Assembly (NCBI RefSeq): GCF_002854065.1 | Contig: NZ_CP024147.1 | Reading direction: 5' to 3' (one strand) | From: Escherichia coli | GTDB taxonomy: Bacteria; Pseudomonadota; Gammaproteobacteria; Enterobacterales; Enterobacteriaceae | DNA: 64,000 bases | In this document: positions 10,001 through 16,000 of the stretch, piece by piece | Position numbering within the stretch: the first letter of the stretch is position 1 | Layout: each line of letters starts with the position of its first letter | Made by a program: the position numbers

Positions 10001-13000
10001 TATAAGTGCGCTCGATGCCGCGATGCAGATATAGCCGTCCGCGTAAATTAGCTGATGCTGTCCAGGTACCATCTTTGTGTTTGACCAGCATTCCTGGCAT
10101 GACCGCACCGCGATTAACGGTCTGCGTTCCGTAATGTTGATGAACCATAAAAACTCCTGCCCGTAAGCTGGGCTGCTGAACATATAAAGACTTCTGGGTA
10201 ATGACTCCAACTTATTGATAGTGTTTTATGTTCAGATAATGCCCGATGACTTTGTCATGCAGCTCCACCGATTTTGAGAACGACAGCGACTTCCGTCCCA
10301 GCCGTGCCAGGTGCTGCCTCAGATTCAGGTTATGCCGCTCAATTCGCTGCGTATATCGCTTGCTGATTACGTGCAGCTTTCCCTTCAGGCGGGATTCATA
10401 CAGCGGCCAGCCATCCGTCATCCATATCACCACGTCAAAGGGTGACAGCAGGCTCATAAGACGCCCCAGCGTCGCCATAGTGCGTTCACCGAATACGTGC
10501 GCAACAACCGTCTTCCGGAGCCTGTCATACGCGTAAAACAGCCAGCGCTGGCGCGATTTAGCCCCGACGTATCCCCACTGTTCGTCCATTTCCGCGCAGA
10601 CGATGACGTCACTGCCCGGCTGTATGCGCGAGGTTACCGACTGCGGCCTGAGTTTTTTAAATGGCGGAAAATCGTGTTGAGGCCAACGCCCATAATGCGG
10701 GCGGTTGCCCGGCATCCAACGCCATTCATGGCCATATCAATGATTTTCTGGTGCGTACCGGGTTGAGAAGCGGTGTAAGTGAACTGCAGTTGCCATGTTT
10801 TACGGCAGTGAGAGCAGAGATAGCGCTGATGTCCGGCAGTGCTTTTGCCGTTACGCACCACCCCGTCAGTAGCTGAACAGGAGGGACAGCTGATAGAAAC
10901 AGAAGCCACTGGAGCACCTCAAAAACACCATCATACACTAAATCAGTAAGTTGGCAGCATCACCTCTGGGTTGAGCGTATTTTAATCAGTAGTATCTTTT
11001 ACAAAATAAAGAGTATTCAATAATGAAAATTTTAATGATGATCGTGGCAGTTTCAGTATTGGCTGGCTGCACAAGTGACACCCGCTCGATGTGGCATAGC
11101 CGTTATGCATTCAAGACTGTCGGTCAGGTCTCTGCAATGTGTGATGATGGCGATCGTGACGCTTGCTATGCAGCTCGCGATATGGGGGCAATGCAGGTTG
11201 GCCTTAATCAAGCAAATCAGACCATTCAACAGCAGCAAGCTCAGCAGGCAGCTATCGATGCGGCTAACAGACCGATTACAACTAATTGTAATCCCACGAT
11301 AAATGGCGGAATGAGTTGTACCACCTACTAAACTGGTGCGAGAGTTAGTAGCGCCATGAACATTGTTAAGTCGAATGTCTTTATGAAACATTCTAGTACT
11401 TTAAAGCTGCCCCACTTACTCGCCTGACAAACGCACAGCAGGTGGTTTATTGGGTTTGAAAATATCTAAAAATAAGAGGGGGTGAAGTAATGGATGATTT
11501 TGAATCTTACGTGAAGTATTGGGAAGGAAAAAAAATTGAAGATCATGAGCGTCAACTAGATGATCTTGTACGGAGAGAGACTGAGATTTCGCAAGGAGAA
11601 AGCGGGCATGGAAGATTAAGTTTTATCGCACAGCAAATCAATTTTCACCGTAACAAACTGGAAAATTTACGCTTCAGTGGTGATTTGTACTAATTTGATT
11701 TTCCATAATCAACTCGCCATAATCATGTCATCGGAGCCTGAACAACTCCGGTGACTTCTGCGCTAAACGGGGACGTTTATGCGCACATACAATCTAAATT
11801 CTCTTCTCCCTTCACAGATGCAGAAATGCACCTGCGATTTTTTGCATCCAGCGTTTGACCTCTGCGGAGGTGAAGCGTGAACCTCCCACAAGACGGCATC
11901 AAATTACATCGCGGTAACTTCACCGCTATCGGTCAGCAGATCCAGCCTTATCTGGAGGACGGCAAATGCTTTCGCATGGTGCTTAAACCGTGGCGCGAAA
12001 GACGCAGTCTTTCCCAGAATGCACTCAGCCACATGTGGTACAGCGAAATCAGTGAGTACCTCATCAGCAGGGGGGAATCGTTCGCTACTGCAGCATGGGT
12101 AAAAGATGCTCTCAAACACACATACCTCGGTTATGAAACCAAGGACCTGGTTGATGTCGTAACCGGCGAAGTCACTACGATCCAGTCGTTACGCCATACC
12201 TCCGATCTTGATACCGGAGAGATGTATGTCTTCCTGTGTAAGGTTGAAGCCTGGGCGATGAATATTGGCTGCCGCCTGACTATTCCGCAGAGCTGCGAGT
12301 TCCAGCTGCTGCGCGACAAGCAGGAGGCGTAATGACTACACCGCTTATTCGGGTCATGAACGGACACATCTACAGAGTACCAAATCGTCGTAAGCGTAAG
12401 CCTGAGCTGAAGCCATCCGAAATACCAACACTGCTAGGGTATACCGCCAGCCTGGTTGATAAAAAATGGTTGCGACTGGCAGCAAGGAGGAATCATGGCT
12501 GATTTGAGAAAAGCAGCGCGTGGTCGGGAATGCCAGGTAAGAATCCCTGGCGTATGTAATGGCAATTCTGAGACGTCTGTACTGGCACATATCCGGCTGG
12601 CTGGATTGTGCGGTACCGGTATCAAACCGCCAGACCTGATTGCCACCATTGCATGTTCTGCCTGTCACGACGAAATCGACCGCCGCACACATTTTGTCGA
12701 TGCTGAGTATGCAAAAGAATGCGCGCTGGAAGATATGGCGAGAACACAGGTTATCTGGCTGAAAGAGGGGGTTATTAAGGCGTGAATACCTACAGCATCA
12801 CATTACCCTGGCCTCCGAGCAATAATCGCTATTACCGCCATAATCGCGGGCGCACGCACATCAGCGCAGAGGGGCAGGCATACCGCGATAACGTCGCCCG
12901 AATCATTAAAAACGCAATGCTGGATATCGGCCTGGCTATTCCTGTGAAAATCCGCATTGAGTGTCACATGCCGGATCGCCGTCGCCGTGACCTGGATAAT

Positions 13001-16000
13001 CTGCAAAAAGCTGCTTTTGACGCACTTACCAAAGCAGGTTTCTGGCTGGATGATGTTCAGGTCGTTGATTACCGTGTTGTGAAGATGCCCGTTACCAAAG
13101 GTGGGAAGCTGGAGCTGACCATCACTGAACTGGGAGATGAATGATGTTTGAGTCTTATATGGCAGAACGTCTTCGCCGCCGCTGGGTGCGCCTGCACTTA
13201 TATCATTTTCCCGGTTCTGTTTTGACCGATTACCGAATACTGAAGAATTACGCCAAAACCCTGACAGGAGCAGGAGTATGAAGTCAGAGATAACAATCAA
13301 CTAATACTGTTTTGTTGATTTTTGCTTGTAATTGGCGTTCTGGTCTGATTTTTGTGGAGTAAGTTGATGCGTGATATTCAGATGGTTCTTGAGCGTTGGG
13401 GAGCGTGGGCGGCTAATAATCATGAAGATGTGACCTGGTCGTCCATTGCCGCCGGTTTTAAGGGATTAATTCCTTCAAAAGTAAAATCTCGCCCACAATG
13501 TTGTGACGATGACGCGATGATCATTTGCGGGTGCATGGCCCGTCTGAAAAAGAACAACAGCGATTTGCATGATTTATTGGTGGACTATTATGTCGGCGGC
13601 ATGACTTTTATGGCGCTTGCACGTAAGCATGGGCGATCTGATTGTTGGGTTGGCAGGATGCTCCAGAAAGCTGAGGGCGTAGTGGAGGGTATGCTGATGG
13701 TGTTGGATCTCCGATTGGAGATGGATGCTGATTGTTCGAAATAATTAAAGGAAAAGTTGCTGTCTGATTGTCATTAGTCTAACATTTTAAATGTTGGAAT
13801 CGCAACGTAGTTATTATCATATAACAGCTTGTTTCCTGATTTAGCCAGCCTCCCCAAAGGCTGGTTTTTTTCTAATAAGTATCATTTCGGGTAGGGATTT
13901 TATTGTTTAACCCATAATAATTCATTGACATTGAATCCCAACTTTTGAGCGGTTCGCACATAGTCTGCTTTTACTTTATCTGGAATAGTTGAGGTCCTTG
14001 CCAGAATCCATAGGTATTCTCTGTTCGGACCACTGACAAGAGCATACTTATACTCATCATCCAGTTTGATTACATTATAGCCACCATAGAAGGGGCCAAA
14101 AAACGAAACCTTCAACGCTGCAGTTTTAGTATCTCCAGTAAAGTATGCTTTACCTTCGCTCTCGCTCCATTTATTTTTCGTTGGATCGTATCCACGGTTA
14201 AGTACACGAATCCCTCCGTCGTTCCGTTTTCCATAAGTAGCGCTGACCTGTTCCAGACCACGTTCGAACCGGTTCTCGAGGCGAGCTATTTCATACCATT
14301 TTCCGAGGTAGCGGTTGGCGTCAAAATTTGTAATCGGCTGCACACCTTTAGGTGGTGTCGGGGCCTTACATGCTATAAGAGTGAAAGAGAGCGCAATGCC
14401 AGTCAACACAGGCCATAACTTCATAATAAATCCTGTACTTTTGATAGTTGAGAGTAAGTATGAAAGATAGATGATTACGACCGATCACTTAAAGAACTTT
14501 CATACTATATTAGGAATAGTCCATAACAGAAAAATTGTCAGTGATGACGCCAGAAAGGCAATTTATTCCGTGCACTACACAGTTTATGTGTTAATGAATT
14601 AGTCAAGGGGGAGGATATGATAAAAAAACCTGTGATTGGAATCAGCGGTTGTTTGGCCGGTTCTGCTGTTCGTTTTGATGGTGGTCACAAAAGAGCTGAC
14701 TTTTTAATGGACAAATTAGTGGAATGGGTAACATTCAGACCAGTATGTCCGGAAATGGCTATAGGGCTGCCAGTTCCGCGTCCTGCTCTACGTCTTGTGC
14801 GCTCGACGCAAGGAAATATACGGATGTGTTTCAGCCACGACCAGAATGAGGATGTGACAGAGAGAATGACAGAGTTTAGTCGTTCTTATATGGACAAATT
14901 AAAGGATGTATCGGGGTTTGTGGTTTGTGCTAAATCTCCCAGCTGTGGCATGGAGCGCGTGCGTGTCTATGATGAAAATGGTAATCGAGGTCGTAAAGAT
15001 GGAGTGGGACTATTTACGAGCACTTTGATGGAAAAGTTTTCCTGGCTACCGGTTGAAGAGGATGGGCGATTACATGATCCAGTGCTTCGTGAGAATTTTG
15101 TTGAAAGAGTTTTTGCTTTGCATGAGCTCAATCACCTTTACAAGGAGAAATTATCAAGAAGAGAGTTATTGGCTTTTCATAGTCGTTATAAGCTTCAGTT
15201 GTTGGCGCATAGTCAGACAGGCTATAAAGATATGGGACCATTTGTGGCTGCAATACACGAGTGGGCGGATCTTGAATCATACTTTGAGGTGTATCGTGAT
15301 AAGCTGATGGCGATTCTCAGAAAACCTGCATCACGTAAAAATCACACGAATGTGCTGATGCATATACAGGGGTATTTTAGTAACTACTTAAGTACACGCC
15401 AGCGTAAAGAGTTGAGCGAGGTTATACTTAACTATCGTTCTGGCACATTACCTCTTCTTGCGCCGTTGACTCTGCTGAAGCATTATCTGGGTGAGTATCC
15501 TAATGATTACTTGCTTACACAGAATTACTTCGATCCCTATCCGGACGAACTGGCTCTAAGACTGATGGTAAATTAATTGTATGCGATATCATCCAAAAGG
15601 ATGAGTTCCTGCATACAGGATATTTACAATCGTAAAAACTACACTATGATACCCAGAGTGTCAGTTTGTATAAAAACTCTGTTTACGCTGAAGAAACCAT
15701 TGAGATGCAACTTAAATTTGGTAAACATGCCAGTCAAAATATATGATATTATGATTCCACGCAGCTATATATAATATAACAGATTGGTGGTAATGACTCC
15801 AACTTATTGATAGTGTTTTATGTTCAGATAATGCCCGATGACTTTGTCATGCAGCTCCACCGATTTTGAGAACGACAGCGACTTCCGTCCCAGCCGTGCC
15901 AGGTGCTGCCTCAGATTCAGGTTATGCCGCTCAATTCGCTGCGTATATCGCTTGCTGATTACGTGCAGCTTTCCCTTCAGGCGGGATTCATACAGCGGCC

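Follow-up and report, generated by a model that had tools for sequence, protein, structure and literature searches.

The window analysed here, a 64,000-nucleotide (nt) stretch of Escherichia coli DNA (NCBI RefSeq assembly GCF_002854065.1, contig NZ_CP024147.1; positions count from its first letter), carries a lambdoid prophage with two short open reading frames (ORFs), of 56 and 46 amino acids (aa), in its nin region. We conclude, with a probability of roughly 85%, that these are two genuine small nin-region (delayed-early) genes, ninE and ylcG, in a module of the type found in prophage DLP12 and phage 82. Both are already named genes, known since the 1990s and routinely annotated. ORFs this short are abundant, with 104 of at least 20 aa overlapping the 6 kb considered here, so the frames alone prove nothing; their significance comes from homology and from conservation at the codon level. 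The two genes lie as follows.

12332..12502 (+): ninE, 56 aa; ATG at 12332-12334, stop TGA at 12500-12502
13141..13281 (+): ylcG, 46 aa; stop TGA at 13279-13281

Curated family models recognise both proteins

The 56-aa protein matches the NCBIfam model NF007245 ('NinE family protein') over its full length (1-56/56) with 140.1 bits against a cutoff of 88, and the 46-aa protein matches NF033498 ('YlcG family protein') with 70.9 bits against a cutoff of 30. In PHROGs, NinE falls in phrog_288 and YlcG in phrog_2705 (E=3.4e-20). RefSeq/PGAP labels both genes in genomes that are 100% identical over this region; in one of the two it calls ninE (171 nt) 'NinE family protein' and ylcG (141 nt) 'YlcG family protein'. 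These scores and labels, together with a gene order like that of DLP12 and phage 82, bear out the names ninE and ylcG that a sequence-only reading of this DNA had proposed. Its placement of the two genes where the nin block leads one to expect them was equally sound, with ninE following ybcN and ylcG standing between rusA and the antiterminator gene Q.

The diagnostic residues are also in place. Fourteen positions are invariant across 30 NinE sequences including that of lambda (P17, K23, P24, K27, S29, Y37, T38, A39, D43, W46, L47, R48, A51 and R52), and the window's NinE carries them all. YlcG proteins have the motif LRxRWxxLRxxRxxGSVLxDYRILxN; in a set of 37 sequences, some with as little as about 33% identity, Y31 never varies and conservation of W15, L18, R32 and N36 is 90% or more; the window's YlcG has all five. 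Over the two families, the motifs are kept at identities as low as 33-35%.

The families are widespread. The 1.9-kb block that holds both genes is present in 4173 of 5426 complete E. coli genomes (at 100% identity in two of them), and the same block occurs in plaque-forming lambdoid phages. NinE comprises 1049 clusters at 90% identity, from Escherichia, Klebsiella, Enterobacter, Citrobacter and Salmonella, with a length of exactly 56 aa in almost every case; YlcG is represented by 90 sequences at the 50% identity level. Homologues with 49-70% identity in other genera retain frame, length and position. By tblastn we also found ylcG-like frames of 45-50 codons, at the same place but unannotated, in the records of phages HK225 and Klebsiella phage 5; because the frames are present in unannotated records, the conservation of ylcG is independent of gene callers. 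In HK225 (JQ086371) the frame lies at 3963-4100 of the extracted locus L005, and in Klebsiella phage 5 LV-2017 (KY271399) at 2971/2983-3123 of locus L008; each overlaps both the resolvase gene and Q.

Signs of selection on both reading frames

For comparison between relatives we assembled 170 loci (L001-L170) from annotated phages and genomes and from two IMG/VR scans seeded with YlcG alignments. The ninE frame is intact in all 72 loci from relatives of at least 80% identity, always with ATG as start and TGA as stop. Its variable sites are mostly at third codon positions (6, 4 and 13 at positions one, two and three), and the pairwise ratio of nonsynonymous to synonymous polymorphism per site (pN/pS) is 0.18, compared with 0.98 and 0.94 in the two shifted frames. 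Site counts, in which distinct mutations are counted against the consensus of each clade, show an excess of synonymous changes (p=8e-4).

The ylcG frame is intact in 83 of 84 loci. Two ylcG clades differ by a two-codon indel that makes a pooled value invalid, and pN/pS is accordingly given within clades only: 0.43-0.49 in the DLP12/82 clade, 0.23 in the Gifsy-1-like clade and 0.14 in the HK225/CobraSix-like clade, against 0.6-3.6 for shifted frames of the region. All three clades show a significant surplus of synonymous changes (p=1.6e-4, 7.8e-12 and 3.2e-7). Across 28 ylcG haplotypes the ylcG frame is open in 27, and the five other frames are open in between 0 and 25. The few ylcG ORFs longer than 46 aa in the 170-locus set are an artefact of taking the first in-frame start. 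For orientation, the chain neighbours ybcN, ybcO and rusA have pN/pS values of 0.14, 0.12 and 0.19. The codon-level pattern indicates that the NinE and YlcG proteins are both under purifying selection. Conservation of the frames in related prophages, on which the sequence-only reading had staked its claim, is therefore what we find: both are intact in nearly every locus (72/72 and 83/84), with low pN/pS.

On the opposite strand, an antisense ORF of 165 aa (12803-13300, minus strand) covers most of rusA and the whole of ylcG. It is broken by stops in 28 of 81 related loci, with a pN/pS of 0.63 over the ylcG segment, and we rejected it as a gene and regard it as a shadow ORF.

Relation to DLP12, phage 82 and lambda

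The sequence-only reading had called for a comparison with the annotated nin regions of DLP12 and lambda. With DLP12 of E. coli K-12, the window shares the gene order ylcH-ybcN-ninE (b0548)-ybcO-rusA-ylcG (b4509)-quuD, the ninE and ylcG lengths of 171 and 141 nt, the overlaps of 1, 8, 4 and 4 nt and an 85-nt gap before a quuD-type Q. Amino-acid identities between the window and K-12 are 96% for NinE, 85% for YlcG, 93% for YbcN and 94% for RusA, and the window's YlcG differs from that of K-12 by seven substitutions in the N-terminal helix. The two prophages differ in location and completeness: DLP12 lies at argU, whereas the prophage in the window stands beside proA and an integrase gene and has had its early region removed by the insertion sequence IS1.

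Phage 82 (X92588, sequenced in 1996) has the corresponding order orf33-orf151-orf56-orf96-rus-orf45-Q. Its orf56 is annotated as 'related to nin60 (ninE) of bacteriophage lambda', and the record marks a ribosome-binding site within each preceding gene. NinE is 96% and YlcG 80-84% identical between the window and phage 82. Here the difference is at the 3' end, where orf45 overlaps a Q82-type Q by 4 nt, whereas the window has another class of Q after 85 nt.

Lambda NinE (nin60) is likewise a small basic nin protein that overlaps its neighbours and carries the motif P..R.K.KP..K.S...T..YTA...D..WLR..AR. It differs in being 35% identical, 60 aa long and flanked by ninD and ninF instead of ybcN and ybcO. 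Lambda is without ylcG; its NinH and NinF are unrelated to YlcG, and alignment of the YlcG profile with both by hhalign gave the same answer.

A chain of overlapping genes

From the sequence and a mechanical ORF list, ninE and ylcG are links in an uninterrupted chain of six overlapping frames on the plus strand, ylcH-ybcN-ninE-ybcO-rusA-ylcG, that runs from 11779 to 13281 and is followed by Q. The remaining features are these.

11779..11880 (+): ylcH-like ORF, first link of the chain, 33 aa; GTGA overlap with the ybcN start
11877..12332 (+): ybcN, a divergent recombination mediator of the NinB/Orf family, 151 aa; GTG start
12495..12785 (+): ybcO (DUF1364, putative nuclease), 96 aa; overlaps the end of ninE by 8 nt
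12782..13144 (+): rusA, Holliday-junction resolvase, 120 aa; GTG start, 4-nt GTGA overlap with the ybcO stop
13282..13366 (+): spacer between ylcG and Q, 85 nt; specific to the arrangement with quuD-type Q
13367..13744 (+): Q antiterminator of the quuD type, 125 aa; Pfam Phage_antitermQ, 173 bits; annotated 'antiterminator Q family protein'

The interval 12332-13281 had been described as two overlapping genes; both are there, but it also contains ybcO and rusA, linked by overlaps in the same way. Pfam identifies these as YbcO (PF07102, 139 bits) and RusA (77.5 bits). The product of ybcN reaches 22.4 bits with Pfam NinB, just under the cutoff of 23.8, and PGAP names it 'YbcN family protein'; it is described as an Orf-like mediator that binds single-stranded DNA (PMC4118853). 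The 56-aa ORF reported at a TAATG overlap with ninB is accordingly right in position, length and overlap, with the qualification that the upstream gene is of the divergent YbcN type. At this junction, base 12332 is common to the TAA stop of ybcN (12330-12332) and the ATG of ninE. The 8-nt overlap at the other end of ninE, with ybcO, reads ATGGCTGA.

The junction of rusA and ylcG, GAGATGAATGATGTTT, holds two candidate start codons for ylcG. The first ATG (13141-13143) forms an ATGA overlap with the rusA stop TGA (13142-13144) and gives 46 aa; the second (13144-13146) forms a TGATG and gives 45 aa. The second methionine is absent from YlcG of phage mEp237 (MTFES...) and of the Gifsy-1 and HK225 clades (MKPE...), and the 4-nt overlap is found again in most of the 170 loci. 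From these two observations we place the conserved start of ylcG at the first ATG, as comparison of the relatives indicates. The 45-aa ORF at a TGATG that had been reported earlier does have its ATG in the sequence, but the conserved start lies one codon upstream.

The overlaps themselves are a lasting feature of the module. The single shared base of ybcN and ninE recurs in CobraSix and HK225 (66-70% identity); ninE overlaps its downstream gene whichever that is (ybcO, ninG, ninI or ninF); the ATGA overlap of resolvase gene and ylcG is present in the large majority of the 170 loci; and ATGA, TAATG and GTGA overlaps are kept across these loci and in diverged phages. Upstream of ninE, a Shine-Dalgarno sequence AGGAGG lies inside the end of ybcN (duplex -10.3 kcal/mol), and upstream of ylcG a GGGAG lies inside rusA (-7.8 kcal/mol). 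From the overlap geometry and these Shine-Dalgarno sequences inside the upstream genes, we infer that ninE and ylcG are translationally coupled by termination-reinitiation. In an intact phage, the module would be read off the early rightward transcript; with each start overlapping the preceding stop and a Shine-Dalgarno sequence inside the upstream gene, ribosomes ending one gene would re-initiate on the next, and the outcome would be co-ordinated synthesis without intergenic space. The lambda nin region has been described as a 'chain of interlinked genes' and as dispensable for plaque formation, in a passage citing Kroger & Hobom 1982, which makes ninE and ylcG accessory genes.

The first link of the chain behaves differently. 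ylcH is annotated in K-12 (b4588) and as orf33 in phage 82, and is intact in 65 of 71 loci, yet neither pN/pS (0.91) nor site counts (11 synonymous and 27 nonsynonymous changes, p=0.15) revealed constraint on its protein, and its variable sites are spread evenly over the codon positions (20/17/19). ylcH may be a leader or coupling ORF only, or no gene at all.

Predicted properties of NinE and YlcG

Both families are strongly basic, NinE with a median net charge of +10 and an isoelectric point of 11.7, YlcG with +6 and 11.0, and neither has a membrane-like segment (maximum 19-residue hydropathy below 1.0). AlphaFold2, run on the family alignment, models YlcG as a hairpin of two helices (residues 2-20 and 27-43) with a mean predicted local distance difference test score (pLDDT) of 81.6. 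The NinE model is of low confidence (pLDDT 68), mostly unstructured with one basic C-terminal helix (39-55), and too poor for a fold search. A sequence-profile search of the PDB returned nothing for NinE and noise alone for YlcG (E=0.87), and Foldseek found no PDB match to the YlcG model below E=6. The PADLOC defence models gave no match to NinE, YlcG, YbcO or YbcN, and the PHROGs, Pfam, NCBIfam and PADLOC libraries and the literature consulted give no function for either family.

Some small helical phage proteins act by binding a host protein, an example being the 47-aa Kil of lambda. YlcG resembles such proteins in size, in a helix-loop-helix prediction and in being the product of an accessory early gene, but this is an analogy only, as we found no relationship in sequence or fold. 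Given the basic charge, the lack of a membrane segment and the context of DNA-recombination genes, our best guess is that NinE and YlcG have accessory roles as small, soluble binders of nucleic acid or of a partner protein; NinE would act through its basic C-terminal helix and YlcG as a two-helix hairpin.

ylcG between a resolvase gene and Q

Each of the 170 loci has ylcG flanked by a Holliday-junction resolvase gene upstream and by Q downstream, whatever the families of these neighbours. The resolvase is RusA or the unrelated NinG, and Q is of the quuD type (125 aa), the Q82 type (225-229 aa) or the lambda/HK225 type (271-276 aa), three classes among which BLASTP finds no similarity. With Q of the Q82 and lambda/HK225 classes, the end of ylcG and the start of Q share 4 or 1 nt. 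The 85-nt spacer occurs in 75 of the 170 loci, always with a quuD-type Q; its RNA fold is not significant (z=0.10), and Rfam has no match to it. In phage 434B (OL657227, L006), ylcG lies at 2001-2141, and the depositor's note puts the crossover that created 434B in ylcG codons 34-39. Recombination thus joins different Q modules at the 3' end of ylcG, in agreement with the mosaic boundary observed there.

The fixed position leaves room for a role of YlcG that is linked to Q expression. One such proposal, which we regard as a long shot, is that YlcG is a self-standing basic helical-hairpin factor, and not a passenger of the recombination module, that tunes the switch to late gene expression. Two routes are conceivable: it would determine how many ribosomes arrive at the Q start, or it would bind an RNA or a host component that all these phages share.

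Condition of the nin block in this genome

The prophage adjoins proA and an integrase gene, and is not at argU. Just upstream of the nin block it is interrupted, and possible regulatory sites lie further in.

10195..10964 (no strand assigned): copy of IS1 that cuts the prophage short immediately before the nin block (from a BLAST comparison of the window with L001)
11695..11723 (+): promoter-like site TTGATT-17-CATAAT, 9/12 consensus matches; consensus match only
12534..12549 (+): sequence identical to a reported HusR (YnfL) box, inside ybcO; exact match, 0 expected by chance
12885..12900 (-): another exact copy of a reported HusR box, inside rusA

E. coli strain 100416 aligns with the window up to 10190 and once more from 10965 (99.94%). 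Where the window has IS1, the otherwise 99.9-100% identical prophage of that strain carries about 5.6 kb with repressor-like, cro-like, YdaT, O, P and ren genes. The early promoter was presumably lost along with the immunity and replication region. With the early region removed by IS1, any expression of the nin block must come from local promoters. At 11695-11723, the promoter-like site falls where X92588, the phage 82 record, annotates putative -35/-10 elements ahead of orf33.

A second candidate driver is the HusR-dependent stationary-phase promoter reported for K-12 rusA-ylcG. A 2026 paper (PMC12844172) describes HusR (YnfL) binding upstream of rusA in K-12, together with a more than five-fold stationary-phase increase in the rusA-ylcG mRNA ratio that depends on HusR; Hemm et al. 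2008, as cited there, is given as the source for stationary-phase induction of ylcG. We took the HusR box sequences from Table 1 of PMC12844172, and their presence in the window, inside ybcO and rusA, suggests stationary-phase expression that does not depend on the phage early promoter. Over-expression of ylcG from the ASKA library changed glycogen accumulation in a genome-wide screen, and ninE, ylcG and ylcH go unmentioned in the ribosome-profiling preprint of Weaver et al. and in the paper on small proteins in Mg starvation.

Downstream of Q, a terminator-like hairpin with a T run at 13843-13866 could end a short late-promoter transcript as in lambda; a weak Rfam hit over it (RF02278) is below threshold (28.6 bits versus 50). 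A gene of the lipocalin family (13900-14424, minus strand) stands where lysis genes would be expected. Two more IS1 copies lie at 15789-16557 and 17624-18391. Strain 100416 lacks about 17 kb, with additional IS1 copies, that in the window separate the Q region from the aldo/keto reductase-rcl genes.

Discussion

Several points count against the reading given above. The pN/pS values and the site tests are pairwise or consensus-based, ignore phylogeny and draw, for each scan, on the 80 loci that match best. Among the relatives closest to the window's ylcG, those of the DLP12/82 clade, constraint is only moderate (0.43-0.49) and a third-position excess is absent. The lambda-centred Pfam model of NinE (PF05322) reaches 23.4 bits, just under its cutoff of 25, and Pfam holds no YlcG family; PF05322 is assigned to a near-identical cluster (P0001) in the database's precomputed Pfam hits. 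The idea that the proteins bind nucleic acid draws on charge and context, with no PDB relative or fold match and a low-confidence NinE model. Finally, adequate expression of rusA in K-12 reportedly requires an insertion upstream of the gene (PMC4118853), so that in a prophage these genes may be all but silent.

This last point leads to the best-surviving alternative, a minority possibility that we consider doubtful but real: that ninE and ylcG are intact but functionally silent relics in this genome, nothing driving the block after the loss caused by IS1. The replacement of about 5.6 kb by the IS1 at 10195-10964, relative to a near-identical prophage, fits this, as does the K-12 rusA report. 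On the other side stand HusR boxes that match exactly those of K-12, a strain in which stationary phase induces rusA-ylcG mRNA, the promoter-like site upstream of ylcH, the possibility of read-through from IS1, and the fact that all six frames of the chain are still intact.

An improbable alternative concerns ylcG alone, which could be mainly a ribosome relay from the resolvase gene to the Q start that sets the level of Q, its peptide having little or no function. That ylcG overlaps both neighbours in nearly all loci with a non-quuD Q would suit such a relay, as would YlcG being the least conserved protein of the block (83-96% identity, against 92-98% for rusA and ninE) and the moderate constraint in the DLP12/82 clade. 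A mere relay would hardly account for the lower pN/pS of the other clades (0.23 and 0.14) with a significant synonymous excess in all three, for the residues that 37 YlcG sequences conserve down to about 33% identity, for a length fixed at 45-46 aa with a confident helical-hairpin model, or for the intact state of the window-type ylcG at a distance of 85 nt from Q. We can set aside with near certainty that ninE and ylcG are chance frames or products of habitual annotation, with the real feature elsewhere (for example in the antisense ORF at 12803-13300): ORFs of at least 20 aa are plentiful in these 6 kb and the antisense ORF is longer than ylcG, but it is stopped in 28/81 loci with a pN/pS of 0.63 over the ylcG segment, the ylcG frame alone stays open (27/28 haplotypes), both proteins match curated family models, and homologues of 49-70% identity in other genera retain frame, length and position.

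We therefore keep to ninE and ylcG as two genuine nin-region genes. As a discovery this adds little, both having been sequenced and named in the 1990s and provided with curated models. It does illustrate that a 60-aa ORF threshold conceals real, selected phage genes, and also that annotation is not proof of function, given that ylcH is annotated yet shows no constraint at the protein level. The interest that remains is in the role of two prophage families that are widespread in enterobacteria, in the invariant order of resolvase gene, ylcG and Q, and in the contrast between these two genes and ylcH.

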